Assembly (NCBI GenBank): GCA_964423595.1
Contig: CAYRFI010000006.1
Span: 8,458-72,457 of the forward strand
DNA length: 64,000 nt
From: an uncultured Thermoanaerobaculia bacterium
GTDB taxonomy: Bacteria; Acidobacteriota; Thermoanaerobaculia; Thermoanaerobaculales; Sulfomarinibacteraceae
Direction: 5' to 3'
Position numbers and translations under genes: made by a program. Positions 3,830 through 63,587 of this stretch are shown here, piece by piece (the first letter of the stretch is position 1; each line of letters starts with the position of its first letter). The notes under the pieces are model-generated. The model had not been told where the DNA came from. It was given only the letters and a program-made list of their open reading frames with translations, and searched no databases.

Positions 3830-5241
3830 AAATCAAACAGATCACCACTATCTCTGCGTCCTTTCTCATGGTTCTCACCCTCTCCGCATGCGACGGATCC
3901 TCCGGCGACGCCGGGGGCCGCACCGACGGTGGTCGCCCGAACGCGATGGGCGACCCGATGGAGGTCGGCGCGCCCGCCGCGGCGGTGCCGGTGCGGGTGC
4001 AGCGCGTTCTTCGCCGATCCATCTCGCAGTACCTGCAGACCAACGGCACGCTCGAGGCCGAAAACGAGGTCGATATTGTCGCCCGCACCTCCGGCCCGGT
4101 GACCGAGATCCTGACTGAGGAAGGTCAGATGGTTCGCGCAGGTCAGCTGATGGCGCGCATCGATGACCGGGAGCCGAAGAACCAGGCCGCGATCGCGCGG
4201 GTCGCCCGCGACGAGGCGCAGCTCGCCTTCGACCGCACCCAGGCCTCGTGGAACGAAGGGCTGGTGAGTCGCGAGGCTTACGACAGCGCGATATCGAAGT
4301 TGGCCGCGGCGCAGGCGCAGCTAGAGAGCGCCGAGATCCAGCTCGCCTACACCGAGATCCGCGCTCCGTTCGACGCCCAGGTGGTGACGCGGGACATCAA
4401 GCTCGCACAGTACGTGACTTCCGGCGCGCGATTGTTTCGGATCTCAGACTTCACGCCCCTCCTGTGCCGGGTCGAGGTGCCCGAGAAGGACCTGCCACGA
4501 GTGCGGATCGGACAGACCGCCCACCTCGAGGTCGAGGCCTACCCTGGTCAGCAGTTCCCGGCCTCCGTCTCGCGGCTGCGGCCGACCGTCGACCCCGCCT
4601 CGGGCACCTTCACCGTCACCCTCGAGGTGGCTGCGCAGGGCAAGCTGCGACCCGGCATGTTCGCTTCGGTGTACCTGGAGACCGAGACCCGTGAAAACGT
4701 GCTCGCGATTCCGCGCGACGCGCTCGTACTCGATTCACTGGGCGACACGGTCTACGTCATGGTCGACGGCGTCGCCGAGCGGCGGGAGGTACGCCTCGGC
4801 CTGCGCGACGAAGACTCGGTGGAGGTCGTCGATGGGCTCGCGGGCGGTGAGCAGCTGATCGTGCTTGGCCAGGAAGGCCTCGCCGACGGCACGCCGGTGG
4901 AGGTCCTTGGCGATGCGCCGCCCGCCGCGTCCACCGTGGAGGCCGCGGGACCGCCGCCGGAGGCCATCGAGGCGATGCGGCAGCGGATGAAGGAGCGCGG
5001 GATGTCGGACGAGGAGATCGAGCAACGCCTGCAAGAGATGCGTGATGGTGGCGGCCGGGGGGGCGGCATGCGACAAGTGGGCGTGAGTGAGATACCGCCC
5101 TTCTTGGCGCAACGGATCAAAGAGGCGTCGCCCGAGGAGCTCGAAGGCATCAAGGAACGGATGAAGCAGTTCGGCCTTTCCGACGAACGCATCGAGGAGA
5201 TCATCAAGCAGATCCGCGAAAACGGCGGGGACGCGAATTGA
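3826..5241 (+). CDS. RND efflux periplasmic adaptor (MFP/HlyD family) lipoprotein with long charged C-terminal extension
   Basis: GTG 3826 overlaps the pump stop (GTGA). N-terminus VKIKQITTISASFLMVLTLSAC is a signal peptide plus lipobox. MFP motifs include coiled-coil AAAQAQLESAEIQLAYTEIRAPFDAQVV and PGMFASVYLE. The ORF-track start at 3571 lies inside the pump gene and is rejected. Confidence 0.9.
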   Translation: MKIKQITTISASFLMVLTLSACDGSSGDAGGRTDGGRPNAMGDPMEVGAPAAAVPVRVQRVLRRSISQYLQTNGTLEAENEVDIVARTSGPVTEILTEEGQMVRAGQLMARIDDREPKNQAAIARVARDEAQLAFDRTQASWNEGLVSREAYDSAISKLAAAQAQLESAEIQLAYTEIRAPFDAQVVTRDIKLAQYVTSGARLFRISDFTPLLCRVEVPEKDLPRVRIGQTAHLEVEAYPGQQFPASVSRLRPTVDPASGTFTVTLEVAAQGKLRPGMFASVYLETETRENVLAIPRDALVLDSLGDTVYVMVDGVAERREVRLGLRDEDSVEVVDGLAGGEQLIVLGQEGLADGTPVEVLGDAPPAASTVEAAGPPPEAIEAMRQRMKERGMSDEEIEQRLQEMRDGGGRGGGMRQVGVSEIPPFLAQRIKEASPEELEGIKERMKQFGLSDERIEEIIKQIRENGGDAN

Positions 5242-5382
5242 ACCACAAAGACACGAAGACACGAAGTACGCACCAAGTTTTTCTTAACCTGGCGATGACT
5301 GACATCGAAACGTCTGGGGATTTCGACGCCAGGTCAGAATTCTTCTTTGTGAAGACCTTTGTGCCTTTGTGCCTTCGTGGTT
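5242..5382. repeat. Long imperfect hairpin with tandem 8-nt-word arms (H7-like variant) between adaptor and second pump
   Basis: The left arm AACCAC-AAAGACAC-GAAGACAC-GAAG and the reverse complement of the right arm AACCAC-GAAGGCAC-AAAGGCAC-AAAG match at 21/26 positions. An inner stem ACCTGGCG...CGCCAGGT is present. The G-run core is weak (TCTGGGGA). Confidence 0.6.
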
Positions 5383-5413
5383 CAAAAGCGGTCGCCGAAT
5401 CGGGGCAGCCAGA

Positions 5414-8641: not shown

Positions 8642-8870
8642 AAGCGCTTCTCGCTTCGGCGAGAAAGGTGCCACCCGTCGCATTGTTTCACTGAGGTGCG
8701 CGTTGAGGCTTCGACGACACAGGTGCCACATTTCGCATTGTTTGCCCGAGAGGCTTGAACTGGCCGAAATGCGCGGAGATCAAACAATGCGAAGTGTGGC
8801 ACCATCCCCGCCGATGCCTCATCGCGCGCCTCATTGGAGGAGTGGCACCTGTGTCGTCGACGCGGCCTCG
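8642..8870. repeat. P elements (GGTGCCAC...CATTGT palindromic family), nested/tandem units
   Basis: The inner hairpin GGTGCCACATTTCGCATTGTTTG (8722-8744) / CAAACAATGCGAAGTGTGGCACC (8781-8803) has 1 mismatch. It is preceded by GCTTCGACGACACA, the inverse of the family tail. The outer left arm is at 8667-8691 and the outer right end GAGTGGCACCTGTGTCGTCGACGC is at 8839-8862. The left flank AAGCGCTTCTCGCTTCGGCG is shared with other copies. Confidence 0.8.
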
Positions 8871-10634: not shown

Positions 10635-12025
10635 GCCTCCTGCGCGGGCTCTTCGACGGCGACGAGGACGACCTCTTCCGAGCCTTCGCGTCTTCGCTGG
10701 AGATGGACTCATGGATCGCTGAAGAGGACATCGAGGGATCGATCGCCCATGTGACGATGCTGGGTGAGGTCGGAATACTCTCTTCAGATGAGACCGCGAC
10801 GTTGGTCGACGCTCTCTCGCAAATCCTGGAGGAGCTCCGGGGCGGCACCTGGACCCCCGACCCGTCTCAGGAGGACATCCATATGGCGGTCGAGGCCCGC
10901 CTCACCGAGGTCGCCGGTGAGGTCGGCGGCAAGCTCCACACCGCCCGCTCGCGCAACGACCAGGTCGCAACTGATGTCCGTCTGTGGTTGAAGCGCCGGC
11001 TTGACGCCCTCGCGGCGGCCGTCGGCGATCTCATTACCGCCCTGCTCGACCGGATTGAAACCGATGGGCAGGTTGTGCTGCCGGGCTATACCCATCTCCA
11101 GCGCGGTCAACCCATCCTGCTCGGCCACCACCTCCTCGCCCACGCCTGGGCACTCAGTCGAGACCTCCAACGGATTCACGAGGTGACTGCACGGGTGAAT
11201 CGGAGTCCATTGGGAGCTTGCGCCCTCGCCGGCACTCCCCACCCCATCAACCGTCAGCAGACAGCGGAGCTCCTCGGTTTCTCCGGACCGATCGAGAACG
11301 CGATGGATGCAGTTGGGTCGAAAGATCATCTTCAGGAGACAGTCTCGACCTGCGCTATTTGCATGTCGACGCTGTCGCGGATGGCCGAGGAGCTCGTCCT
11401 GTGGTCATCGGCAGAGTTCGCATTTATCCAACTTGATGAGCGGCACACCACGAGCTCGAGCATCATGCCCCAAAAACGCAACCCGGACGGCGCCGAGCTG
11501 ATCAGAGGCGAAGCCGGCGTGGTCTTTGGCAATCTGCAGGCGCTTCTGACACTTACCAAGGCCATGCCACTCGCCTATAACCGTGATCTGCAAACGGAGC
11601 GGAAACCCCTCATCGAATCGGTGCTGCGTACGACGGCTTCGGTCCAACTCCTGGCTGCGATGTGGGCTGAGCTCGAGGTACGGAAGGCGCGGTTCGAAAG
11701 CGAACTGTTCGGCGATCTCAGCTTGGCTACGGAGCTCGCCGATCTCCTGGTCGAGCGCGGCGTGCCGTTCAGGGAGGCACACCGGATCGTGGCCCAGGCG
11801 GTCAGGTGGTGTGAGGAGCAAGGGGGCAATCTCAGCCTCCTCGATGGCGGCACCGCACAACAGTTCCACCCCGGTTTCCCGTCGGATCTGGGACCCTGGT
11901 TGGATCCGCGAGCGGCCGTCGAGCGGCGGACTTCATACGGGGGAACTGCCTCATCGGAGGTCGACCGTCAGGTCTCCCTGCTACGCGATCTGGTTTCCGT
12001 CACAGCCACCGATCACGACCGCTGA
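10631..12025 (+). CDS. argH: Argininosuccinate lyase
   Basis: 464 aa with the fumarate-lyase signature [18 protein letters not shown], and [16 protein letters not shown] overlaps the argG stop (ATGA). Confidence 0.95.
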
Positions 12026-19138: not shown

Positions 19139-19229
19139 CGAATCCTCCTCCAGTCGGTCCCTGGCATTCTACGCCTTCCGAAAAAGACATGCGGGCCAAG
19201 CGACGAGTCACGGTCGTCGATGCGATATT

Positions 19230-19320
19230 CCAGATACCGGATACCAGATCTACCCCGCCTCCCACTGGGACCTCATCCGCTCTCCGCATCCGGTATCTGA
19301 CATCCGGCAGCCGGTATCCC
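19230..19320. repeat. H7 element (heptad-word arms + G/C-run core), CCGGATA word type
   Basis: Arm CCAGATA-CCGGATA-CCAGATC, core CCCCGCCTCCCACTGGG, and opposite arm CATCCGG-TATCTGA-CATCCGG-CAGCCGG-TATCC. Lies in the divergent hbd/tsaC intergenic region. Confidence 0.65.
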
Positions 19321-19377
19321 TGCGAGAGCGGCTGGTTGACTGAACGGCGTGCCAACGGTATACACGTTGGGCTCGAG

Positions 19378-19995
19378 ATGATTTTGGAAATCGATCCCGT
19401 CGAGCCGCAACCGTGGCTGTTGGCGCGCGCCGCGCAGATGCTACGCGGTGGCGGCGTCGTGGTCATGCCCACCGATACGGTTTACGGAATGACCTGCGGT
19501 ATCACTCACCACGAAGCGATCCGCCGGATTTACAAGCTCAAGGACATGGACCCCAAGAAGCCGTTGTCGATTCTAGTCGGCGACATGTCGATGGTCGGTC
19601 ACTATGCCCGCGGAGTCTCGACACCGGCCTTCAGGCTCCTCAAGCGGGTCCTCCCGGGACCCTACACCTTCATTTTCGAGGCCAGCCCCGAGGTGCCGAA
19701 GATCATGCTCCGCAAGCGCCGTACCGTCGGCATTCGCATGCCCGACAACCCGATCGCCCTCGCGCTGCTGGCGGAGATGGGCGAGCCCCTCCTCAGCTCC
19801 TCGATTCGCGGCCCCGAGCAGGATTTCGTCAACGACCCCGAGGAACTTGACGCCTCCCTCGGCGACGATGTCGACATGGTGATCGACGGCGGCATACTGC
19901 TGCCGGTGCCTTCGACCGTGGTCGATCTCTCAGGCTCTGAGCCAGTGCTGCTCCGCGAGGGCAAGGGCGACGTCGGAATCCTCGAGCTCTTCTAG
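19378..19995 (+). CDS. tsaC: L-threonylcarbamoyladenylate synthase (TsaC/YrdC family)
   Basis: LRGGGVVVMPTDTVYGMTCG, KPLSILV, LPGPYTFIF, VGIRMPDNPIALALL and SSS motifs. The upstream part of the tracked ORF (19189-19377) covers a repeat element and is rejected. Confidence 0.9.
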   Translation: MILEIDPVEPQPWLLARAAQMLRGGGVVVMPTDTVYGMTCGITHHEAIRRIYKLKDMDPKKPLSILVGDMSMVGHYARGVSTPAFRLLKRVLPGPYTFIFEASPEVPKIMLRKRRTVGIRMPDNPIALALLAEMGEPLLSSSIRGPEQDFVNDPEELDASLGDDVDMVIDGGILLPVPSTVVDLSGSEPVLLREGKGDVGILELF

Positions 19996-20125
19996 GCGCT
20001 TCCCGATTCGGCGTGCAAGGTGCCACCCCTCACATTGTCTGATGAACCACACCTCTCATCAGAAACGCCTCCCAGTCAGACAATGTGAGGGGTGGCACCT
20101 GTGTCGTCGAAGCCCCAAAGCGCAC
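19996..20125. repeat. P element, single complete unit (type example)
   Basis: Perfect 24-bp stem GGTGCCACCCCTCACATTGTCTGA (20019-20042) / TCAGACAATGTGAGGGGTGGCACC (20076-20099), flank GGCGCTTCCCGATTCGGCGTGCAA, and tail TGTGTCGTCGAAGCCCCAAAGCGC. Lies between the convergent tsaC and degT-like genes. Confidence 0.85.
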
Positions 20126-20144
20126 TCCCGCGCCCAGACCCGTC

Positions 20145-21254
20145 TCAGTTCGCGTAGAACTCCTCGATTGCGTGCACAACCTCTTCCTGCTCGCTCTCGG
20201 TCAACTCCGGAAACACTGGCAACGCCAGCACCTCTCGACTCGCCTCCTCGGCGACCGGGAATTCTCCCTGCTCGTGGCCGAGTCCCTCGAAGCACGGCTG
20301 AAGATGCAGAGGCAACGGATAGTAAACCGCCGCGCCGATGCCCCGATCCGCCAGAAATGCTCGCAACTCGTCCCGGCGCTGAACTCGCACGACGTATTGG
20401 TTGAAGGTGTGGCCGCGGCCGGAAACGGCCTCCGGCAGCTGCACCGTTTGCTCGAGACCCGCGTTGGCGAAGAGACGACGGTAGCGATCGGCGTTGGCGC
20501 GCCGCCCCTCGATCCACGCGCCAACATGCGGGAGCTTGACCCTGAGGATCGCCGCCTGCAGCGCATCGATACGGAAGTTCCCACCCACAACCGGGTGCTG
20601 GTAGGGGCCCGACTGACCGTGCATTCGCAGCTCGCGAAGGCTACGGTCAAGCTCGGCGTTGTCTGTTGTCACCAACCCACCGTCGCCAAAACAGCCCAGG
20701 TTTTTCGACGGAAAGAACGAAAACGCGCCCATGGCCCCGATCGAACCGACCTGGGCGCCATTGAAGTCCGCTCCCCAGGCCTGCGCGCAGTCCTCCACCA
20801 CCGGCACATCGCCCGCAACCTTCATGATCCGGTCCATCGCTGCCGCCTGACCAAAGAGATGGACCGGGATGATTGCGCGTGTCCGGTCGTTGATACTGAC
20901 ATGAAGGTGCTCCGGATCCATGCAGAAATCGACGGGATCGACATCGACAAAGACCGGGGTCGCGCCCAGGCGCGACACCACCCCGGCCGTCGCGAAGAAC
21001 GTAAAAGTCGGCAGGATCACCTCATCGCCGCGGCCAACGCCAAGCGCCATCAGAGCAACGAGCAGTGCGTCGGTGCCCGAGGTGACGCCAACGGCGTGTA
21101 ATGTTTCCAGCGCCACAGCCGATTCGCGCTCGAAAGCGTCGACCTCGGCGCCGAGGATGAATCGTTGTGAATCACAGACGCGATCGATGGCCTGGCGCAT
21201 CTCCTCACGCAGGGGTTCGTACTGTCGCGTCAGATCGAGCAGCGGCACGGGCAT
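20145..21254 (-). CDS. DegT/DnrJ/EryC1/StrS-family PLP-dependent sugar aminotransferase
   Basis: VPLLDLTRQYEPLREEM, GAEVDAFERE, FSFFPSKNLG (PLP-Lys region) and LALPVFPELT. ATG 21254 follows GGAGG at 8-nt spacing. Confidence 0.9.
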   Translation of the reverse strand: MPVPLLDLTRQYEPLREEMRQAIDRVCDSQRFILGAEVDAFERESAVALETLHAVGVTSGTDALLVALMALGVGRGDEVILPTFTFFATAGVVSRLGATPVFVDVDPVDFCMDPEHLHVSINDRTRAIIPVHLFGQAAAMDRIMKVAGDVPVVEDCAQAWGADFNGAQVGSIGAMGAFSFFPSKNLGCFGDGGLVTTDNAELDRSLRELRMHGQSGPYQHPVVGGNFRIDALQAAILRVKLPHVGAWIEGRRANADRYRRLFANAGLEQTVQLPEAVSGRGHTFNQYVVRVQRRDELRAFLADRGIGAAVYYPLPLHLQPCFEGLGHEQGEFPVAEEASREVLALPVFPELTESEQEEVVHAIEEFYAN

Positions 21255-21298
21255 TCCAGGCACCTCCAATGTCGTGAACGGGACATAGAGTACCTCGT

Positions 21299-21414
21299 GA
21301 ATGAGGAATTAGGAATTGGGAATTAGGAATTTCCCGACACACTTCCCAACAACATCGTCGCAAACAGGGGTGGGCGGGCGGCATTCCTCATTTCTCATTC
21401 CTAACTCCTCATTC
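21299..21414. repeat. H7 element, GGAATTA word type (type example)
   Basis: Arm GAATGAG-GAATTAG-GAATTGG-GAATTAG-GAATT, a 35-nt spacer, core GGGGTGGGCGGGCGG (21367-21381), and arm CATTCCT-CATTTCT-CATTCCT-AACTCCT-CATTC. The arms are complementary at 27/33 positions. Confidence 0.75.
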
Positions 21415-21466
21415 TTCTATTTGCTAACATGATTCGGCGACTCGTCGTCGCGACAAGGGAGCAGTC

Positions 21467-22795
21467 ATGCACATCTGTGTTGTTGGTACCGGCTACGTCG
21501 GGCTCGTCACCGGAGCCTGTCTGGCCGATTTCGGCATCAACGTCACCTGCGTCGACAAGGACGAGGAGAAGATTGCCAAGCTCCTCGACGGCGAAATCCC
21601 AATCTACGAGCCCGGGCTCGACTCGTTGGTGGATAAGAACGCGAAAGCGGGACGTCTCCACTTCTCGACCGATCTCGCCCCGGCTATACAGCACGCCCTC
21701 GCTATCTTCATCGCGGTCGGCACCCCGCCGAAGGAAGACGGCTCTGCTGACCTCTCGTACGTCGTTCAGGTCGCAGAGGCTATTGCCGACAATCTCAACG
21801 GCTACAAGGTCGTGGTCACCAAATCCACGGTGCCAATCGGGACGGGGCAATTGATCGAGAAGATCATGACCGAACGAGGCAGCAGTGCCCATCCGTTTTC
21901 GGTCGTCTCCAACCCCGAATTCCTTCGTGAAGGGTCCGCGATCGCCGACTTCATGCGGCCCGACAGGGTCGTCATCGGTGCTCGCGACGCTCAGGCCGTG
22001 GCCATCATGAAGGACATTTACTCACCGCTCTACCTGATCGAAACCCCATTCGTGATCACAAACGTCGAATCTTCCGAGCTCATCAAGTACGCCTCGAACG
22101 CGTTCCTCGCGACCAAGATCACTTTCATCAATGAAGTCGCCGAGCTCTGCGACCGACTCGGCGCGGATGTCCATCACGTCGCCAAGGGAATGGGGCTCGA
22201 CAAACGCATCGGACCGAAATTTCTCCATCCGGGGCCGGGATACGGAGGCTCGTGCTTCCCAAAGGACACTCACGCGATGTCTGAGATCGCGCGCGAGGCC
22301 GGCCGCCCGTTCGAGATCGTTGACACGGTCATTGCGGTCAACGACCGGATCAAGGAACGGGCCGTCGAACGTGTCGAGGAGGCGATTGGCGAGAACCTCG
22401 AAGGCAAGACTGTGGCAGTACTCGGTCTCAGCTTCAAGCCAGAAACAGACGACATGCGCGAATCGTCCTCGATCCCGTTGGTCACGGCACTAGTTCAGGG
22501 CGGCGCAAAGGTCAAGGCATTTGACCCCGTGGCGATGGACAACGCACGCGCAATTCTGCCCCAGAGTGTGCAGTACTGCGAGGACGCCTACGACGCTGCC
22601 GACGGAGCCGATGCAATGATCATCGTCACTGAATGGAACCAGTTCCGTTCCCTTGACATGGAGCGCGTTCGTTCCTCGCTGAGACAGCCGGTGGTGGTCG
22701 ACCTCCGCAACCTATACGACCCGAAGCGGATGAAAGACCAGGGATTCCGGTACTCCAGCTTCGGCCGTGCTGCGAAAGACCTTCCGGGCGAGTAG
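21467..22795 (+). CDS. ugd: UDP-glucose 6-dehydrogenase
   Basis: MHICVVGTGYVGLVTGACLADFG, NPEFLREGSA, GGSCFPKD (catalytic Cys) and LGLSFKPETDDMRES. Confidence 0.95.
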   Translation: MHICVVGTGYVGLVTGACLADFGINVTCVDKDEEKIAKLLDGEIPIYEPGLDSLVDKNAKAGRLHFSTDLAPAIQHALAIFIAVGTPPKEDGSADLSYVVQVAEAIADNLNGYKVVVTKSTVPIGTGQLIEKIMTERGSSAHPFSVVSNPEFLREGSAIADFMRPDRVVIGARDAQAVAIMKDIYSPLYLIETPFVITNVESSELIKYASNAFLATKITFINEVAELCDRLGADVHHVAKGMGLDKRIGPKFLHPGPGYGGSCFPKDTHAMSEIAREAGRPFEIVDTVIAVNDRIKERAVERVEEAIGENLEGKTVAVLGLSFKPETDDMRESSSIPLVTALVQGGAKVKAFDPVAMDNARAILPQSVQYCEDAYDAADGADAMIIVTEWNQFRSLDMERVRSSLRQPVVVDLRNLYDPKRMKDQGFRYSSFGRAAKDLPGE

Positions 22796-22817
22796 CTCGT
22801 TTGGGGTGTCCGCGAAA

Positions 22818-22919
22818 GTAATCAGTAAACAGTGACCAGTAACCAATTCTGAGACTTCGACTTCCTCCCGAGAACGGGGTTGGGGCGGGTCTGGTTACTG
22901 GTTACTTGTTACTAATTAC
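22818..22919. repeat. H7 element, GTAACCA word type
   Basis: Arm GTAATCA-GTAAACA-GTGACCA-GTAACCA, a spacer, core CGGGGTTGGGGCGGGTC (22875-22891), and arm TGGTTAC-TGGTTAC-TTGTTAC-TAATTAC. The arms are complementary at 24/28 positions. Confidence 0.75.
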
Positions 22920-22969
22920 CTCTTCTGACCAGCTTGACCGATCGGGCGGCGACCGCGAAACTGGATGCC

Positions 22970-23371
22970 ATGACTGCCGACGACTCAGTGCGGCTCGATA
23001 TCTGGCTTGATGTGGCGTGTATCTTCAAAACACGCTCGCAGGCCCAGACCGCGTGCGCGCGCGGCCGGGTCGAGGTCAACGGAGACCGAGGTAAACCGCA
23101 CCGTGCCGTGCGACCGGGAGACATCATCCGAATCCAGCTCCCCGGTGGCCGCCGCCGAATTATCGAGGTTCTCGAGCTCGAGTCGACGAACGTATCGAAG
23201 GCTCGTGCACGCGAGCTGTATAGCGACCACACACCACCCCCGACACCCGAGGAGATCGAGCTTCGCAAAATGCAGCGGTTGTCCGCACCTCCCAGGCGCG
23301 CCCGCGGCAGCGGCGCGCCGAAGAAAAGAGAACGCCGCGATCTCCGCCGGCTGAAGGAAGAGTGGGAGTGA
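22970..23371 (+). CDS. S4-domain RNA-binding protein (Hsp15/HslR-like) with basic tail
   Basis: VRLDIWLDVACIFKTRSQAQTACARGRVEVNGDRGKPHRAVRPGDIIRI is an S4 fold pattern. ATG 22970 is preferred; in-frame TTG 22934 is possible. Confidence 0.75.
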   Translation: MTADDSVRLDIWLDVACIFKTRSQAQTACARGRVEVNGDRGKPHRAVRPGDIIRIQLPGGRRRIIEVLELESTNVSKARARELYSDHTPPPTPEEIELRKMQRLSAPPRRARGSGAPKKRERRDLRRLKEEWE

Positions 23372-23373
23372 GT

Positions 23374-23462
23374 GCGAAATCGGAATGAGGAATTCGGAAT
23401 TCTGAATTCCCAACCGCCCACCCCGGGAAATTTCGGATTTCGAATTTCGGATTTCGAATTTG
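23374..23462. repeat. H7 element, GGAATTC/GAATTTC word type, core in C-rich orientation
   Basis: Arm GCGAAAT-CGGAATG-AGGAATT-CGGAATT-CTGAATT, core CCAACCGCCCACCCCGGG (23409-23427), and arm AAATTTC-GGATTTC-GAATTTC-GGATTTC-GAATTTG. It begins 3 nt after the stop of the S4-domain gene. Confidence 0.75.
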
Positions 23463-23677
23463 CCACCGGACCAATAGGCAGTAAGGCTATGCGGCGTTAC
23501 GGCTCTAAGGCACTTCAAACATGGCCCTTGATGAATAGGAAGAAACTCTTGCCCGAGACTATTTCCGCTCTCCTTCCTCAGAAAGGCGCGGTGGGCGAAG
23601 CCCAACGTGGCTTTCTGAGGTTAGAATAGCCGGACCCAATCATGGGGTGTGGCCAGGTACGACCGCTGGAGGTATGA

Positions 23678-25910: not shown

Positions 25911-25957
25911 GCAATTCTCCACTGACTCAGCTTGAAGTTGAGTCAGTGGAGAATTGC
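25911..25957. terminator. Perfect 19-bp stem hairpin between convergent usp and pth (candidate bidirectional terminator)
   Basis: GCAATTCTCCACTGACTCA (25911-25929), loop GCTTGAAGT, TGAGTCAGTGGAGAATTGC (25939-25957). It starts 6 nt after the usp stop, and the right arm encodes the last pth codons. No U-tract follows. Confidence 0.5.
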
Positions 25958-32999: not shown

Positions 33000-34361
33000 A
33001 TGACGGAACCAGAACACTCCGGGTCGCTGTTTACTGACCAGACCTTCGACGACGTGGATCTTCCAGAACCGCTTCGGCGTGCTGTCGACGACCTCGGTTT
33101 TTCGAAGCTTACTCAGGTTCAGGCCGAGGTTTTTCCGATTTCACTCGCCGGTCGCGACGTCGTCGCTCAGGCACAGACCGGTTCCGGGAAGACCGCTGCG
33201 TACCTGTTGACGGTGTTTACCCATTTCTTGCGTGTTCCCCGGGAGACTCCGCCCGAAACACCGCGTGCCCTGATCGTCGCGCCAACCCGCGAACTCGCGG
33301 TGCAGATCGCGAACGACGCCGAGGGTCTCGGCCACTACGCCGGCATCCGCACACATGTCGTCTTCGGTGGGCTGGATTACCGCAAACAGCGCGAGATTCT
33401 TGAGCGTGGCACCGACCTCCTGATCGGAACCCCTGGTCGCCTCATTGATTACCATAAGAAGGGTTCGTACTCGTTGCGGAAAACCGAAATGGTGGTGATC
33501 GACGAATGTGACCGCCTTTTTGACATGGGCTTCGCCGAAGACCTGCGCTGGATTCTGCGGCGCATGCCGCACCCTACCGAACGGCAATCGATGATGTTCA
33601 CCGCCACCTTGTCGCAGCGAGTCATGACGCTAGGCTGGCGACAGATGAACGAACCTTCAGAGGTCGTGATCAACCCCGAACAGTTGACACCGGATTCCAT
33701 TCACCAGGTGCTCTACCACGTCGCCACCCGTGAGAAACTCTCTCTGCTCCTCGGTCTCCTCGAGCGCGAGGGGAGCTCGCGAATCATGATCTTCGTCAAC
33801 ACGAGGTTTCGGGCGCAACGATTGGTGGACGATCTGCGCCGCCACGGTTATTCGGCTCGCGGTCTGACGGGCAGCGTCGTGCAGACCAAAAGACTGCGGG
33901 TGCTCGACGAGTTCCGGGACGGTAAGCTCCCGATTCTGGTCGCAACGGACGTGGCAAGCCGCGGGCTCCACATCGAGGGCGTCACTCACGTCATCAATTA
34001 CGATCTCCCCCAGGACTCCGAGGACTACGTTCACCGCATCGGCCGCACAGCCCGAGTCGGCGCCGAAGGAAAGGCCATCACGCTCGCCTGCGAGGACTAC
34101 ATCTACTCCCTCGACGCCATTCAGCAATACGTCGGGTACGATCTGCCCACCGAGTTTGCCGACGACGGGCTTTTCGCCAAAGTGCGGCCGCGCGATCGCC
34201 GGCCCGCTCGCGCTGACTCTCGAAGCCCACGGCCCTCGCAATCCGGACCCAGTCAATCTCCCGGCGGTGACGGCGATTCAAAGCCCCGCAGGAGACGACG
34301 GCGGCGGCCGCGACGAAAAGGGGGCGGAGGGGGTGCCGATCAGGGAGAATCGAAAGGCTGA
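33000..34361 (+). CDS. DEAD-box ATP-dependent RNA helicase with Arg-rich tail
   Basis: Q-motif FSKLTQVQ, motif I AQTGSGKT, PTRELA, DECD (DEAD variant), TAT, and HRIGRTAR. The basic C-tail is RRRRRRPRRKGGGG. Confidence 0.9.
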   Translation: MTEPEHSGSLFTDQTFDDVDLPEPLRRAVDDLGFSKLTQVQAEVFPISLAGRDVVAQAQTGSGKTAAYLLTVFTHFLRVPRETPPETPRALIVAPTRELAVQIANDAEGLGHYAGIRTHVVFGGLDYRKQREILERGTDLLIGTPGRLIDYHKKGSYSLRKTEMVVIDECDRLFDMGFAEDLRWILRRMPHPTERQSMMFTATLSQRVMTLGWRQMNEPSEVVINPEQLTPDSIHQVLYHVATREKLSLLLGLLEREGSSRIMIFVNTRFRAQRLVDDLRRHGYSARGLTGSVVQTKRLRVLDEFRDGKLPILVATDVASRGLHIEGVTHVINYDLPQDSEDYVHRIGRTARVGAEGKAITLACEDYIYSLDAIQQYVGYDLPTEFADDGLFAKVRPRDRRPARADSRSPRPSQSGPSQSPGGDGDSKPRRRRRRRPRRKGGGGGADQGESKG

Positions 34362-34479
34362 AAGCTGTCAGCTGTCAGCCGTCAGTTTCCCACCGCCCAC
34401 CCCCTCGGGATCGTTTTGCGGAAACACGGGAAGGGAGGGTGGGTCTGATAGCTGAGAGCTGATTGCTGAGAGCTAAAAG
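34356..34479. repeat. H7 element, AGCTGTC word type, with both C-run and G-run cores
   Basis: Arm GGCTGAA-AGCTGTC-AGCTGTC-AGCCGTC, core CCCACCGCCCACCCCCTCGGG, an 18-nt loop, GGGAAGGGAGGGTGGG (four G3 runs), and arm CTGATAG-CTGAGAG-CTGATTG-CTGAGAG-CTAAAAG. It overlaps the helicase stop codon. Confidence 0.75.
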
Positions 34480-37727: not shown

Positions 37728-37890
37728 AGCTGAATAGCCATTGGCTATTGGCTTTTGGCTTTCAGCCGTCAGCTTTCCGGTATCAGCCCTCGGCACTTGT
37801 TCATCGGCAGGGAGAGCTGACAGCTGATTGCCGAGAGCTTCGCGGGGTGGGTGGGGGCGCTAACGGCTAAAAGCGAAAGGCTCACAGCTT
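37728..37890. repeat. Composite H7 element(s), AGCTGNC word type
   Basis: A long left array (GCTGAAT-AGCCATT-GGCTATT-GGCTTTT-GGCTTTC-AGCCGTC-AGCTTTC...), then GAGAGCT-GACAGCT-GATTGCC-GAGAGCT, core CGCGGGGTGGGTGGGGGCG (37841-37859), then CTAACGG-CTAAAAG-CGAAAGG-CTCACAG. Lies in the divergent SulP/queG region. Confidence 0.7.
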
Positions 37891-41241: not shown

Positions 41242-41317
41242 GAATCCGAACCCGATCCCGATTCCGTATTTTTGTCGTGTGCGCCGCCACGTTTTCGGGA
41301 ACGGGATCGGGATCGGA
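41242..41317. repeat. Hairpin with CCCGAT-word arms (H7-like, no clear G-run core) between nhaC-like and recO
   Basis: GAATCCGAACCCGATCCCGATTCCG ... CGGGAACGGGATCGGGATCGGA. The arms are largely complementary, and the loop is TATTTTTGTCGTGTGCGCCGCCACGTTTT. Confidence 0.55.
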
Positions 41318-44885: not shown

Positions 44886-44988
44886 CGCCCGCCCATCCGG
44901 CTTCGCCTACCGGCTCCGTCCTGCTGACTTCGCCGTGACAAGTCGGCTACGCCGGGACAATCCCGTCCAGATACAAGATCCAAGATGG
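44886..44988. repeat. Left half of a split H7 element (C-run core + CAAGATN arm)
   Basis: CGCCCGCCCATCCGG starts right after the birA stop. The arm CAGATAC-AAGATCC-AAGATGG (44968-44988) is complementary to the arm at 45804-45831, about 0.8 kb away. Confidence 0.6.
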
Positions 44989-45120
44989 TGTCCCGTTCTG
45001 AAATAGATTGGCACACGAGTTCATCTACCCGTTCCGGTCGACAGTGCACCGGCTCTCGGGATTCCAGGTTCGTGGCCACGTCGGATGCCGGCGCCGGACG
45101 CTCGACGCACGACGGGTCGC

Positions 45121-45411
45121 TCACGATCTCGGATGGAGCAACCGCCATGTCATGACGCGGACCTCATCGAACAGCCGCAACGTTTTGCTTGCACGAGCAA
45201 CATCGACCACACCTGCATGGGCGAGGAGACGCAGGTGGCAGTCGACCTCGTTCGCCGAGCCGTACCCGATACGCCAGTGGTGTATCCGATTTCGTCCCGA
45301 TCGACCATGGCCCTCCGAGAGGTTCGCCGGGACCGAGCTCGCCGAACGAATCACTTGGTCGGCCAGGCACTTGAAAGGAGCCGGAACCCGCGTCACGAGG
45401 GTGATCGCCAT
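45121..45411 (-). CDS. Four-helix-bundle protein (23S rRNA intervening-sequence protein / Avd-like family)
   Basis: 96 aa. ADQVIRSASSVPANLSEGHGRSGRNRIHHWRIGYGSANEVDCHLRLL matches the family signature (S-I/V-P-x-N-I/L-x-E-G...GS-x-E) from memory. Confidence 0.8.
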   Translation of the reverse strand: MAITLVTRVPAPFKCLADQVIRSASSVPANLSEGHGRSGRNRIHHWRIGYGSANEVDCHLRLLAHAGVVDVARASKTLRLFDEVRVMTWRLLHPRS

Positions 45412-45467
45412 GGTCGCTGCCTGGAGGGCTTTGCGGCGGGCGATGAGGGTGCTGTCGGGGAGCGCAT

Positions 45468-45634
45468 CGAGCCGTGATCACCTCCGGGTCGTTCATACTC
45501 TCCCCAAGCTGGTGAGGCGGCCGGTGTCAAGGGTCGCGAAGCGACCGGCCACAGGCCGGCGGGCCCTTGATACCGGCCGGCTCGCCAGCTATTGCCCGCA
45601 TATTCATGAACGACCCGGAGGTGATCACGGCTCG
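45468..45634. repeat. 167-nt hairpin with perfect 29-bp terminal inverted repeat
   Basis: CGAGCCGTGATCACCTCCGGGTCGTTCAT (45468-45496) is the exact reverse complement of 45606-45634. The 109-nt interior has further pairing (GGCCGGTGTCAAGGG / CCCTTGATACCGGCC, 14/15; GGTCGC-GAA-GCGACC). Confidence 0.8.
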
Positions 45635-45787
45635 CTCCAAACCAGGCGGCCCGCTCACCGGCGCTGCCTCGTGCCGCTGCTGCCTGTCACTGCCGCTGAT
45701 CATCTCCGCCCTCGATAACCGACGCAGAGGCGATAGCTCCCCTGCGAGAACCGACAACTTCTCGCCAGAACGCGACAACTCTGATCC

Positions 45788-45831
45788 TTGGGTGGGAGGG
45801 CGGCCTTGCATCTTGTATCTTGCATCTGCTC
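45788..45831. repeat. Right half of the split H7 element (G-run core + arm)
   Basis: Core TTGGGTGGGAGGGCGG, then CCTTGCA-TCTTGTA-TCTTGCA-TCTGCTC. The reverse complement CAGATGCAAGATACAAGATGCAAGG matches the 44968-44988 arm. Confidence 0.6.
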
Positions 45832-50142: not shown

Positions 50143-50177
50143 GAGATACAAGATGCAAAATCCAAGATCCAATGCTC
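50143..50177. repeat. Heptad-word array (AAGATNC type), left part of a composite element
   Basis: GAGATAC-AAGATGC-AAAATCC-AAGATCC-AATGCTC. This is the same word family as the arms at 44968 and 45804. Confidence 0.55.
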
Positions 50178-50219
50178 TCAACCCAAGGCGTTCAGGGCTG
50201 TCCAGTCCTGATTCTATGA

Positions 50220-50327
50220 GGAGCCACCTTTAGCATTGTTGGCCTCAGCGATGGAATGACTTCGGCGACGGGATTCCAACAATGCAAAAGATGGCACCTG
50301 GCGCTACTCGATGAAGCGCTTTTCTCC
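50220..50327. repeat. P element, diverged copy nested between two heptad arrays
   Basis: GGAGCCACCTTTAGCATTGTTGG ... CCAACAATGCAAAAGATGGCACC, with tail TGGCGCTACTCGATGAAGCGC. Confidence 0.6.
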
Positions 50328-50345: not shown

Positions 50346-50400
50346 CGCGGGTGGGCGGATCGAGTATCGAGCATCGAGTATCGGGCGGGTCGTGGGGCGG
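50346..50400. repeat. G-run core + heptad-word array (ATCGAGT type), ending at the dsbD stop
   Basis: GCGGGTGGGCGG, then ATCGAGT-ATCGAGC-ATCGAGT-ATCGGGC-GGGTCGT-GGGGCGG, with additional G-runs at the end. Confidence 0.55.
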
Positions 50401-52990: not shown

Positions 52991-53226
52991 CAGCGCTCCT
53001 CGCTTCGGCGTGCACGGTGCCACCCTTCACATTGTTTGATGAACCACTCTCACGCCGGAGGCGCTTTCAGGGCAAACAATGTGAAGAGTGGCACCTGTGT
53101 CATCGATGCAGCAACGCGCGCCTCATTGTACGGCAGACAATGCGAAGAGTGGCACCGGTGTCGCCGACTCGGCCAAGCGCTCTTGATGGGCGGGTGACAC
53201 CAGTGTCGTCGAAGCCCCAGCGCGCG
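52991..53226. repeat. P elements, one full unit plus two extra right-end modules, between rimM and trmD
   Basis: Flank CAGCGCTCCTCGCTTCGGCGTGCAC, then the stem GGTGCCACCCTTCACATTGTTTG (53016-53038) / CAAACAATGTGAAGAGTGGCACC (53073-53095). These are followed by CAGACAATGCGAAGAGTGGCACCGGTGTCGCCGA (53134-) and GGTGACACCAGTGTCGTCGAAGCCCCAGCGCGC (53192-53224). Confidence 0.8.
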
Positions 53227-56697: not shown

Positions 56698-56789
56698 GAA
56701 GCAGTCAGCAATCAGCAATCAGCTTTCAGCTCCCCCACCCACCCCTGGCGCCTTGAATGCTGACGGCTGATAGCTGATAGATAAGAGCT
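56698..56789. repeat. H7 element, AGCAATC word type, core in C-rich orientation
   Basis: Arm GAAGCAGTC-AGCAATC-AGCAATC-AGCTTTC-AGC, core TCCCCCACCCACCCCTGG (56731-56748), and arm GCTGACG-GCTGATA-GCTGATA-GATAAGA. It starts 1 nt after the LuxR-type gene stop. Confidence 0.75.
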
Positions 56790-57590: not shown

Positions 57591-57685
57591 GGTGCCACGT
57601 TTCGCACTGTTGCATTACCAGCATCGCGTGTCCCGAGTGTTGATCGATACGGTAACGCAACAGTGCGAAACGTGGCACCTGTGAT
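57590..57685. repeat. P element, variant (CACTGTTGC stem)
   Basis: GGTGCCACGTTTCGCACTGTTGC / GCAACAGTGCGAAACGTGGCACC is a perfect 23-bp stem, extendable to 29 bp with 1 mismatch. The tail is TGTGATAACGG. It begins at the last base of the upstream stop codon. Confidence 0.7.
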
Positions 57686-63283: not shown

Positions 63284-63587
63284 CCCCAATGAGGAGCGTT
63301 TCTCGCTGCGACGAGTCAGGTGCCACTTGTCGCATTGTTACAAGAGCGCTCAGGACAGCAGGGTGACAACGACAATGCGACATGTGGCACCGGTGTCGTC
63401 GACGCGGCCATGCGCTTCTCATGGGGGTGTCCCAAGCCCCAATGCGCTCCTCATTGGGGGCAGCAGGGTGCCATCTTTTGCATTGTTCGGATTCATCGCC
63501 TCACAATCTGGTCACGCACTTCAGCCGAACAATGCGAGAGGTGGCTCCTGTGTCGTCGATGCGGCAAAGCGCTCCTCAAGAGGCCCC
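63284..63587. repeat. P elements, two tandem units showing the full three-helix architecture
   Basis: Unit 1: CCCCAATGAGGAGCG / GCTGCGACGAGTCA / GGTGCCACTTGTCGCATTGTT ... ACGACAATGCGACATGTGGCACC / GGTGTCGTCGACGC / GCGCTTCTCATGGGGG. Unit 2: GGGTGCCATCTTTTGCATTGTTCGG ... CCGAACAATGCGAGAGGTGGCTCC TGTGTCGTCGATGC...AAGCGCTCCTCA. Lies between the convergent proS and MidA-like genes. Confidence 0.8.

Follow-up and report, generated by a model that had tools for sequence, protein, structure and literature searches.

Tandem-heptamer hairpins in intergenic spacers of Acidobacteriota resemble rRNA intervening sequences and enclose PF05635 genes in distant bacteria

The intergenic spacers of a 64,000-nucleotide stretch from an uncultured Thermoanaerobaculia bacterium of the phylum Acidobacteriota (contig CAYRFI010000006.1, positions 8,458 to 72,457; hereafter the window) carry hairpins whose two arms are inverted tandem arrays of a short word. 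These H7 elements form a class, defined by inverted arrays in which a unit of 7 nt, or in some cases of 6 or 8, is repeated 3–5 times, and which fill the spacer from the upstream stop codon. One of them encloses a gene of the Pfam family PF05635, the '23S rRNA-intervening sequence protein' (S23p). The same purine-first, inverted-heptamer wrapping of PF05635 genes occurs in rRNA, operon spacers and plasmids, and in two acidobacterial classes, Xanthomonas, cyanobacteria and Azospirillum. The architecture of the elements, their enrichment, spread and position at stop codons, the purine-first polarity, the periodic mismatches, the turnover of words and the PF05635 enclosure are all directly observed. 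The reading that we tentatively favour, at somewhat less than even confidence, is that H7 sites are dispersed hairpins of the intervening sequence (IVS) type, mostly without an open reading frame (ORF), and the same type of element as the S23p-bearing IVSs of rRNA.

Inverted heptamer arrays in the window and its relatives

Period-7 runs were sought with Tandem Repeats Finder and with an autocorrelation criterion of our own, for which 50 order-2 Markov simulations served as the null. By autocorrelation the window contains 12 period-7 runs, whereas the simulations average 0.36 and never exceed 2; each of the remaining periods from 4 to 12 gives 0–5 runs. Tandem Repeats Finder placed period-7 arrays at 19230, 21299/21382, 22817/22891, 23376/23429, 34363/34445, 37741, 45805, 50144, 50359 and 56700/56766, confirming the heptamer arms that a first-pass annotation of this DNA had described at these sites. 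Two further sites that it had listed as variants, 5242 and 41242, are indeed repeat hairpins, with 8-nt (period 8 at 5244/5356) and 6-nt units (period 6 at 41295), but they lack the G-rich core.

Most of the period-7 runs in the window form inverted pairs with stems of 25–40 bp. Arms are 22–38 nt long and 83–86% complementary, as in 21299–21330 with 21383–21414 (32 nt, 84%), 22818–22845 with 22892–22919 (28 nt, 86%), 5238–5266 with 5357–5385 (29 nt, 83%) and 41245–41266 with 41296–41317 (22 nt, 86%); the first two agree with the 27/33 and 24/28 paired positions counted previously. Fold z-scores for 21299, 22818 and 34356 lie between -4 and -5.5 on both strands, and 56698 reaches this range on the plus strand, with -2.9 on the minus strand. 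Folding of 23374 is weaker (-2.9 on the plus and -0.7 on the minus strand), and neither 19230 (z about -1.4) nor the 37728 element taken as a whole folds significantly. The arms are AT-rich relative to the genome, and the 64 kb hold at least six mostly AT-rich word types, GGAATTA, GTAACCA, AGCTGTC, CAAGATA and ATCGAGT among them. Words differ between copies, as had been noted, but are not strictly copy-specific, in that the families GGAATTN, AGCTGTC/AGCAATC and CAAGATN each recur. In total there are about 11 elements in the 64 kb, and roughly a quarter of the window's intergenic spacers are occupied.

Four assemblies from other samples (two from JGI and two from Logan; L081–L084) match the window with 99.86–99.98% identity and without indels across 19230–23463. 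Because these independent assemblies carry the same elements, the heptamer pattern is not an assembly artefact, which the first-pass annotation had raised as a way in which it might fail. All four represent the same strain as the window, and unit number does not vary among them.

To follow the design beyond this strain we used the loci retrieved with the UDP-glucose dehydrogenase (UGDH) gene beside the 21299 element as query; retrieved loci are numbered L001 onward. The closest relatives of this gene come from uncultured Acidobacteriota of the class Thermoanaerobaculia (best match 91–93% amino-acid identity). The same hairpin design, built from different words, is present in Pyrinomonadaceae, Blastocatellia, Chloracidobacterium and other Thermoanaerobaculia. 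In the 61 loci labelled as Acidobacteriota there are 111 period-7 runs, a density of 1.17 per 10 kb, and 32 of these loci are positive; the 19 loci of Proteobacteria or Desulfobacterota that this query also retrieved yield 0.06 per 10 kb. Across all loci, 95 of the 165 period-7 runs have an inverted partner within 400 nt that scores above the 99th percentile of a random-segment null, and these paired runs make up 53 distinct hairpins. The 165 arrays use 100 canonical words; an attempt to group the words by single linkage at one mismatch chained nearly all of them together and was uninformative.

PF05635 genes between inverted arrays

The sites 44886–44988 and 45788–45831 of the earlier list are the two ends of one 860-bp element, and the gene that they enclose had been overlooked. 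This minus-strand ORF matches PF05635 with E = 8.9e-14. The family is a four-helix bundle homologous to Avd of diversity-generating retroelements (PMC10053308). The window copy differs from its homologs of 117–124 amino acids by a frameshift of 1 nt that follows the seventh codon (MNDPEVI), and it is therefore probably decaying.

Inverted tandem arrays enclose the gene in 17 of the 22 PF05635 loci that could be assessed; a further 3 are ambiguous, and in 2 the gene is not enclosed. Among the acidobacterial loci, L165 and L166 are enclosed, the latter by the same core and CTTGYAT array; L173 is ambiguous, L171 lacks arms and L172, at a contig end, falls outside the tally. The PF05635 gene of L032 has 8-nt arms that begin directly past a stop codon. 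In L058, from Chloracidobacterium, the ORF occupies exactly the interval that the arms leave within the UGDH-to-epimerase spacer, and this same spacer holds an empty hairpin in L014, L015, L017, L021, L027 and L031; across other genomes it contains an empty hairpin, a simple hairpin or nothing. The gene of XCC0516, the crystallised PF05635 protein of Xanthomonas, lies in the accB-accC spacer, with a GGGAATC array running from the accB stop onward and the inverse array ending at the accC ATG. On cyanobacterial plasmids 10 of 13 PF05635 loci are enclosed (in Nostoc, Tolypothrix, Anabaena, Leptolyngbya, Geminocystis and Stanieria), 2 are ambiguous and 1 is without arrays; in Nostoc PCC 7120 the loop holds an ISL3 transposase in addition to the PF05635 gene. 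Finally, a PF05635 match in Azospirillum lipoferum is a true IVS, situated within a gene that Rfam recognises as 23S rRNA (LSU_rRNA_bacteria, 634.8 bits). The ORF of this IVS is flanked by inverted CAGAGGA/CGGAGGA-type arrays, and the arms are heptamer-periodic throughout. When we scanned blindly for inverted array pairs with loops of 250–3000 nt, almost only PF05635 loci were returned.

Several other observations concern the contents and neighbourhood of such loops. Nostoc also has an empty heptamer hairpin (L182 8180–8256), and on the same Nostoc flagelliforme plasmid inverted CTCCTGA / CAGAAGT arrays about 280 nt apart (L182 16263–16605) overlap a different hypothetical ORF of 95 amino acids, which may be another kind of cargo. 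Same-word arrays about 3 kb apart in L012 were considered as a single cargo hairpin and set aside, as they look like two separate sites. On the cyanobacterial plasmids L183, L184, L187 and L182, PF05635 genes occur within defence loci or adjoin them; one position is between cas6 and cas4, another after cas1-cas2, and others are beside DISARM drmA and beside DUF499. A tblastn search of plasmids with the window protein gave no matches; the L058 homolog as query did. This L058 protein (11317–11724) is 55–66% identical to four-helix-bundle proteins (H1–H19) on plasmids of Nostoc, Oscillatoria and Tolypothrix, and such high identity across phyla suggests horizontal transfer of the gene or of the element.

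The window cassette has a conserved leader (45468–45634), in which the opening 29 nt of the PF05635 gene recur, without a mismatch, as an inverted copy. This repeat brackets a hairpin, TGTCAAGGG...CCCTTGA, and the 3' arm of the hairpin holds TTGACA about 30 nt before the ATG. The leader is conserved with the cassette in L165 (2200–2338), L166 (3870–4000) and L171–L173, with an inverted copy of about 29 nt that is perfect in the window; it could hold a promoter of the gene's own from which the start would be near-leaderless, or it could serve as a translational lock or be an invertible segment. Upstream of the cassette all Thermoanaerobaculia-type copies have a (CAGCGG)n-like low-complexity tract (window 45640–45700, L172 1–78, L165 1990–2200, L171 3550–3660). 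The L172 contig ends inside this tract, and contigs shorter than 2 kb hold most of the 120 closest homologs, a distribution suggestive of an element in many copies that breaks assemblies.

These cassettes raise the alternative of a non-autonomous transposon resembling MITEs (miniature inverted-repeat transposable elements), in which the core, or the core plus an array, would be an end recognised by a transposase or recombinase and the PF05635 cassette would be the autonomous form. A core joined to a CTTGYAT array does flank PF05635 cassettes in both the window and L166, a core joined to a NATTCCT array occurs in both the window and L165, the cassette homologs are 70–82% identical and spread over many short contigs, and the similarity between the Chloracidobacterium and Nostoc plasmid proteins would also fit. 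We nevertheless give this alternative very little credence, given that the elements contain no transposase and that no catalytic activity is known for PF05635, a small four-helix bundle. Furthermore, no target-site duplications are visible at arm boundaries and no direct repeats flank 21299, 22818, 23374 or 56698, the arms differ from copy to copy, unlike terminal inverted repeats, and orthologous copies change their words in situ.

Position and polarity of the arms

The 5' arm starts mostly 0–10 nt past the upstream stop codon, and the 3' arm often extends to within a few nucleotides of the following start or stop. Sites that abut a stop codon in the window are 5242, 22818, 23374, 34356, 44886, 50400 and 56698, and the gene map bears out the earlier placement of the elements at divergent promoters, at operon junctions and against stop codons. 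We also considered a rule by which each word would hold a stop codon and so close all three frames, and rejected it: CCGGATA, ATCGAGT and CAAGATA have no stop on either strand.

Elements with stable stems that mostly lie directly past stop codons, in co-directional or convergent spacers, might act at transcript ends, either as factor-independent or assisted terminators or as 3'-end stabilisers that block exonucleases in the manner of repetitive extragenic palindromic (REP) sequences. The heptamer arrays of Xanthomonas are transcribed and lie within 50 bp of stop codons (PMC4692102), as this alternative would have it. We consider it unlikely. No T-run follows the 3' arm of the elements, and a scan for intrinsic terminators and sigma-70 consensus sequences found none at the elements, so that identity with intrinsic terminators was rejected. 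Several elements are inside operons of presumably co-transcribed genes (HlyD-AcrB, UGDH-S4, accB-accC) and several others are between divergent genes.

In 57 of 69 hairpins it is the 5' arm that is rich in purines (p = 4e-8), and the 5' arms average a purine fraction of 0.65. The element being a palindrome, this purine-first polarity is identical on either strand.

Evolution of the arms

Mismatches between the two arms recur at the same place in successive 7-nt units more often than expected by chance (p about 0.005), most clearly at L001 12159 and at 23374 in the window. Unit variants have therefore spread inside one arm independently of the other, a pattern that points to slippage-driven concerted evolution, of which it is the expected product.

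Upstream of UGDH the word itself is replaced between relatives: GGAATTA in the window becomes GGCTATG in L085 (93%), CGGATTT in L001 (91%) and CGAATTT in L002 (85%), and the element is missing from relatives at about 80% identity. Good folding is kept in three of these four word versions. The flanks are conserved, with the DegT start on one side and the TGCTAACAT box and a 5'-untranslated-region hairpin on the other. At 21415–21466 and in the orthologs L085, L001 and L002, the TGCTAACAT box is followed by this small conserved hairpin (GGCGACTCGTYGTCGC), which is kept while the H7 element changes completely. The first-pass annotation had proposed that orthologous alignments be examined for slippage with compensatory change; words indeed change in situ and mismatches are periodic, but unit number does not vary among L081–L084.

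Single-nucleotide polymorphisms (SNPs) also accumulate in one of these arrays: 3 of the 11 that separate the window from a near-identical strain fall inside the 91-nt 19230 element. In the comparison with L082 (99.86% identical), 4 of 11 are in or beside this element (19216–19300), and A19300G restores a TATCTGG unit that matches CCAGATA.

Observations of this kind would also be expected of a functionless by-product, in which heptamer slippage, together with template-switch correction of quasi-palindromes, would generate self-expanding palindromic microsatellites. Such arrays would persist only where spacers tolerate them, and PF05635 would merely insert preferentially into their loops. Complete word turnover between close relatives, gain and loss within the same spacer, array-internal homogenisation seen as periodic mismatches, the lack of a sense-strand G·U bias and the enrichment of SNPs in the 19230 element are all consistent with this explanation. 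Heptanucleotide repeats are, moreover, the most abundant class of long simple sequence repeats in many genomes, and an origin by polymerase slippage has been proposed (summarised in PMC4679880; PMC4692102). Symmetric slippage, however, predicts neither the purine-first polarity nor the tight abutment to stop and start codons; unit numbers are similar in both arms, and the 20-fold difference in density between lineages would need an added lineage-specific factor. We regard this explanation as possible, without thinking it probable.

The G-rich core

We searched the window for the core motif GGGGTGGGCGG with at most one mismatch and found 11 copies against 2.9 expected; none of 100 shuffles reached 11. 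The enrichment of core and heptad runs over simulated sequence, on which the first-pass annotation had staked its pattern, is thus confirmed. Seven of the 11 matches adjoin arms. In its G-rich orientation the core is usually immediately 5' of the pyrimidine-rich arm, and its orientation relative to flanking genes is inconsistent. Core oligonucleotide sequences from the window include GGGGTGGGCGGGCGG and GGGAAGGGAGGGTGGG.

The core had been presented as the conserved centre of the family, which does not hold. It accompanies arrays only in near relatives of the window (L001, L004, L085, L165, L166 and L173) and is lacking in the equivalent hairpins of other Acidobacteriota, Xanthomonas and Nostoc. 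It is sometimes outside the hairpin (L004 1365, L166), and L165 2714–3013 consists of six consecutive core-plus-array modules. The sites 50143–50177 and 50346–50400 are not partners: no inverse partner of the first was found locally, and the second has a core-array-core layout that is repeated next to a stop codon in L166 (4481–4545). The G-rich core thus appears to be a lineage-specific motif of the array/loop junction.

A further alternative, which takes up the earlier G-quadruplex (G4) proposal, is that the elements act as DNA, as cruciforms or G4 that would modulate nearby promoters, supercoiling or the binding of a nucleoid protein. The cores are enriched and adjoin arms, they have G4Hunter scores of 1.5–3.2, four sites are in divergent promoter regions and there is no strand bias relative to genes; oligonucleotides of the Xanthomonas and Nostoc heptamers form G4 in vitro (PMC4692102). 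However, of the cores that had been proposed as G4 candidates with 3–4 G-runs, only 1 of 11, that at 34428, has four G3 tracts and is canonical, and the rest have two or three. The equivalent hairpins of most Acidobacteriota have no core, the core may be outside the hairpin or stacked in tandem, and the variable words argue against a sequence-specific binding protein. A DNA-level function of this kind therefore appears quite unlikely to us.

Other features of the window

The elements and the parts of the PF05635 cassette are collected in Table 1. In addition, the window has a second inverted-repeat family, separate from H7 and conserved in sequence, at 8652–8864, 20007–20111, 50219–50299, 53005–53167, 57591–57679 and 63299–63568. 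Arms of approximately TTCGGCGTGCAAGGTGCCACCCCTCACATTGT and its inverse enclose a loop of about 33 nt; the family is nested in places and looks REP- or MITE-like. Where a Usp-family gene and a peptidyl-tRNA hydrolase gene converge, there is a near-perfect, non-periodic 23-nt palindrome with a 1-nt loop (25911–25957), probably a bidirectional terminator or hairpin of the ordinary kind.

Table 1 Positions of H7 elements, variants and cassette features in the window
Position	Feature	Core, arms and fold	Setting
5238..5385	Variant hairpin, 8-nt units (CACGAAGA / CCTTTGTG)	No core; DNA fold z -5.3; arms 29 nt, 83%	Fills spacer from HlyD-family gene (stop 5241) to AcrB-family gene
19230..19320	Weak H7 hairpin, CCRGATA / TATCYGG	C-rich core CCCCGCCTCCCAC at 19254-19266	Divergent spacer, 3HCDH-family / Sua5-family genes
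21299..21414	H7 hairpin	Arm 21299-21330 (GGAATTA), 37-nt spacer, G-core 21367-21381, arm 21383-21414 (CATTCCT)	Divergent spacer, DegT (-) / UGDH (+); directly upstream of conserved extended -10-like box TGCTAACAT
22818..22919	H7 hairpin, GTAACCA / TGGTTAC	G-core 22876-22889	Between UGDH stop (22795) and S4-domain gene (22934)
23374..23463	H7 hairpin, GGAATTC / GAAATYY	C-rich core 23410-23424 is the loop; arm mismatches periodic, mostly G:T	Begins 2 nt past S4-gene stop
34356..34479	H7 hairpin, AGCTGTC / CTGAKAG	C-core 34389-34405 and G-core 34428-34443	DEAD-box helicase stop codon inside first unit
37728..37890	Composite/nested arrays, TTGGCTT, AGCYGTC / GCTAAMRG	G-core 37844-37859	Divergent spacer, SulP transporter (-) / QueG (+)
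41242..41317	Variant hairpin, 6-nt units GATCCC / GGGATC	No core; z -3.5	Divergent spacer, Na+/H+ antiporter (-) / recO (+)
44968..45828	Filled element	Arm 44968-44988 (ATACAAG-type), ~800-bp loop, G-core 45788-45803, arm 45803-45828 (CTTGYAT)	
45121..45496 (-)	PF05635 gene		Loop of filled element
45468..45634 (-)	Cassette leader, conserved		
50143..50177	Solitary ATACAAG-type heptamer array		Upstream of radical-SAM gene
50346..50400	Core-array-core module	GGGTGGGCGG, (ATCGAGY) x3.5, GGCGGGTCGTGGGGCGG	Abuts stop codon of DsbD-family gene (-)
56698..56789	H7 hairpin, AGCAATC / GCTGATA	C-core 56732-56745	Begins directly past TAA of LuxR-family gene

Discussion

We hypothesize, by analogy with the rRNA IVSs, that the arms of H7 elements pair in a transcript shared with the neighbouring genes and that the resulting duplex of about 25–40 bp would be cut by RNase III, so that the flanking cistrons would be separated and the loop RNA freed. 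If the loop has an ORF, the freed RNA would carry a purine-rich 5' half-stem that resembles a Shine-Dalgarno sequence and could serve the cargo ORF as a ribosome-binding region. Each arm would evolve by replication slippage and be homogenised internally, and either selection or a palindrome-correcting repair process would keep the two arms roughly complementary.

Several points weigh against an IVS-type origin and function. Four of the roughly eleven sites in the window are in divergent spacers and may be untranscribed; the 21299 element among them is upstream of the apparent UGDH promoter, so that it may have no transcript at all. A crude hand tally, with noisy gene orientation, of G:T versus A:C arm mismatches gave about 26 in the sense and about 32 in the antisense direction, with no sense-strand excess and therefore no signature of RNA-level selection, although the negative is a weak one. 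No PF05635 remnants were found in empty loops (best E about 8), which leaves it a conjecture that the empty elements derive from filled ones. The constancy of unit number means that slippage is not fast at the time scale of near-identical strains. Finally, homology searches supplied the PF05635 loci, whose flanks were assessed in part by eye.

A further-reaching proposal, which we consider rather doubtful, is that tandem-heptamer hairpins and PF05635 genes together make up a single selfish system, so far unrecognised, of which each is one half. The gene would reside in the loop of host transcripts, whether rRNA or operon spacers, and be freed by RNase III, and its protein would create, spread or maintain the arrays, either by itself or together with a polymerase or reverse transcriptase of the host. 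If true, this would explain the origin of the rRNA IVSs, the short tandemly repeated repetitive (STRR) sequences of cyanobacteria together with the GGGAATC repeats of Xanthomonas, and the long-noted excess of heptanucleotide repeats. Heptanucleotide repeats, in the form of STRRs, of GGGAATC and of an excess in surveys, have been noted for decades without explanation. The window ties together heptamer repeats, 23S rRNA IVSs and the very common PF05635 proteins, and in Acidobacteriota the design is numerous also without the gene. Elements this frequent would affect how operons are expressed, where assemblies break and what annotation records in a major phylum of soils and sediments.

Comparison with known systems

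Several known repeat classes can be set apart from H7 elements on their architecture. As the first-pass annotation had held, they are not REP, MITE or clustered regularly interspaced short palindromic repeat (CRISPR) sequences, and the architecture is kept while the sequence varies. REP sequences and the bacterial interspersed mosaic elements (BIMEs) are, like H7, abundant extragenic palindromes past stop codons and inside operons, and their mosaics with short motifs recall the stacked core-plus-array modules. They differ in having a GTAG/CGTC-tagged sequence conserved within the genome and REP-associated tyrosine transposases (RAYTs), in contrast to the variable sequence and periodic arms of H7, and identity with REP/BIME was rejected on the differing arm sequences between copies. 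No RAYT link was seen for H7 in the part of the ORFs of these 64 kb that was scanned. The head-to-tail 7-mers stand in inverted pairs with no spacer structure, which excludes a CRISPR, and integron attC sites were likewise ruled out on architecture.

The claim that no described family has this architecture goes too far. Xanthomonas genomes each contain 70–75 convergent pairs of intergenic GGGAATC heptamer arrays of about 4 units (Rehm et al. 2015, PMC4692102), and for these, as for the Nostoc GGGGAYT repeat, the repeat type is kept between species and the length varies (PMC4692102). Like the arrays of the window they are intergenic tandem heptamers near stop codons, often in convergent pairs. 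In contrast, they use one G-rich word genome-wide with the G-tract in the unit, whereas the window has many words and its G-runs are in a separate core. PF05635 is not mentioned in that work (PMC4692102), even though one GGGAATC pair encloses XCC0516. The STRR heptamers of Nostoc and Calothrix are also tandem intergenic arrays, and here they are seen both as empty hairpins and as PF05635 wrappers; they are described as direct arrays of a few fixed words (PMC4692102) and are not known to have been reported as cargo-bearing hairpins conserved in structure. Full-text literature searches returned no paper that generalises the link between S23p and heptamers and none on heptamer repeats in Acidobacteria. 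The abundant, word-diverse, heptamer-armed hairpins of Acidobacteriota, their purine-first polarity and the general enclosure of PF05635 across distant bacteria thus appear to be undescribed.

The closest likeness is to the 23S rRNA IVSs. The IVS of Coxiella has 28-bp terminal inverted repeats and an S23p ORF and is excised by RNase III (Warrier et al. 2016, PMC4990558), and 2–3 tandem GACAGAT heptamers, whose number varies by strain, precede the S23p ORF (PMC4990558). The IVSs of Coxiella burnetii and Leptospira (PMC4990558) share with the window elements a long stem made from terminal inverted repeats and a PF05635 ORF in the loop that is optional and prone to decay; the Coxiella IVS also shares the tandem heptamers at the stem/ORF junction. 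Unlike IVSs, the elements of the window are between protein-coding genes and not in 23S helix 25 or 45, and at gathering thresholds Rfam found only a tRNA-Gln and no rRNA in the window. They are also mostly ORF-less, as in the Salmonella-type IVS, and occur many times per genome, and RNase III excision has been demonstrated for rRNA IVSs only. Given their location outside rRNA they are not IVSs in the strict sense; by analogy of structure and cargo, H7 elements would work like IVSs and are probably of the same kind.

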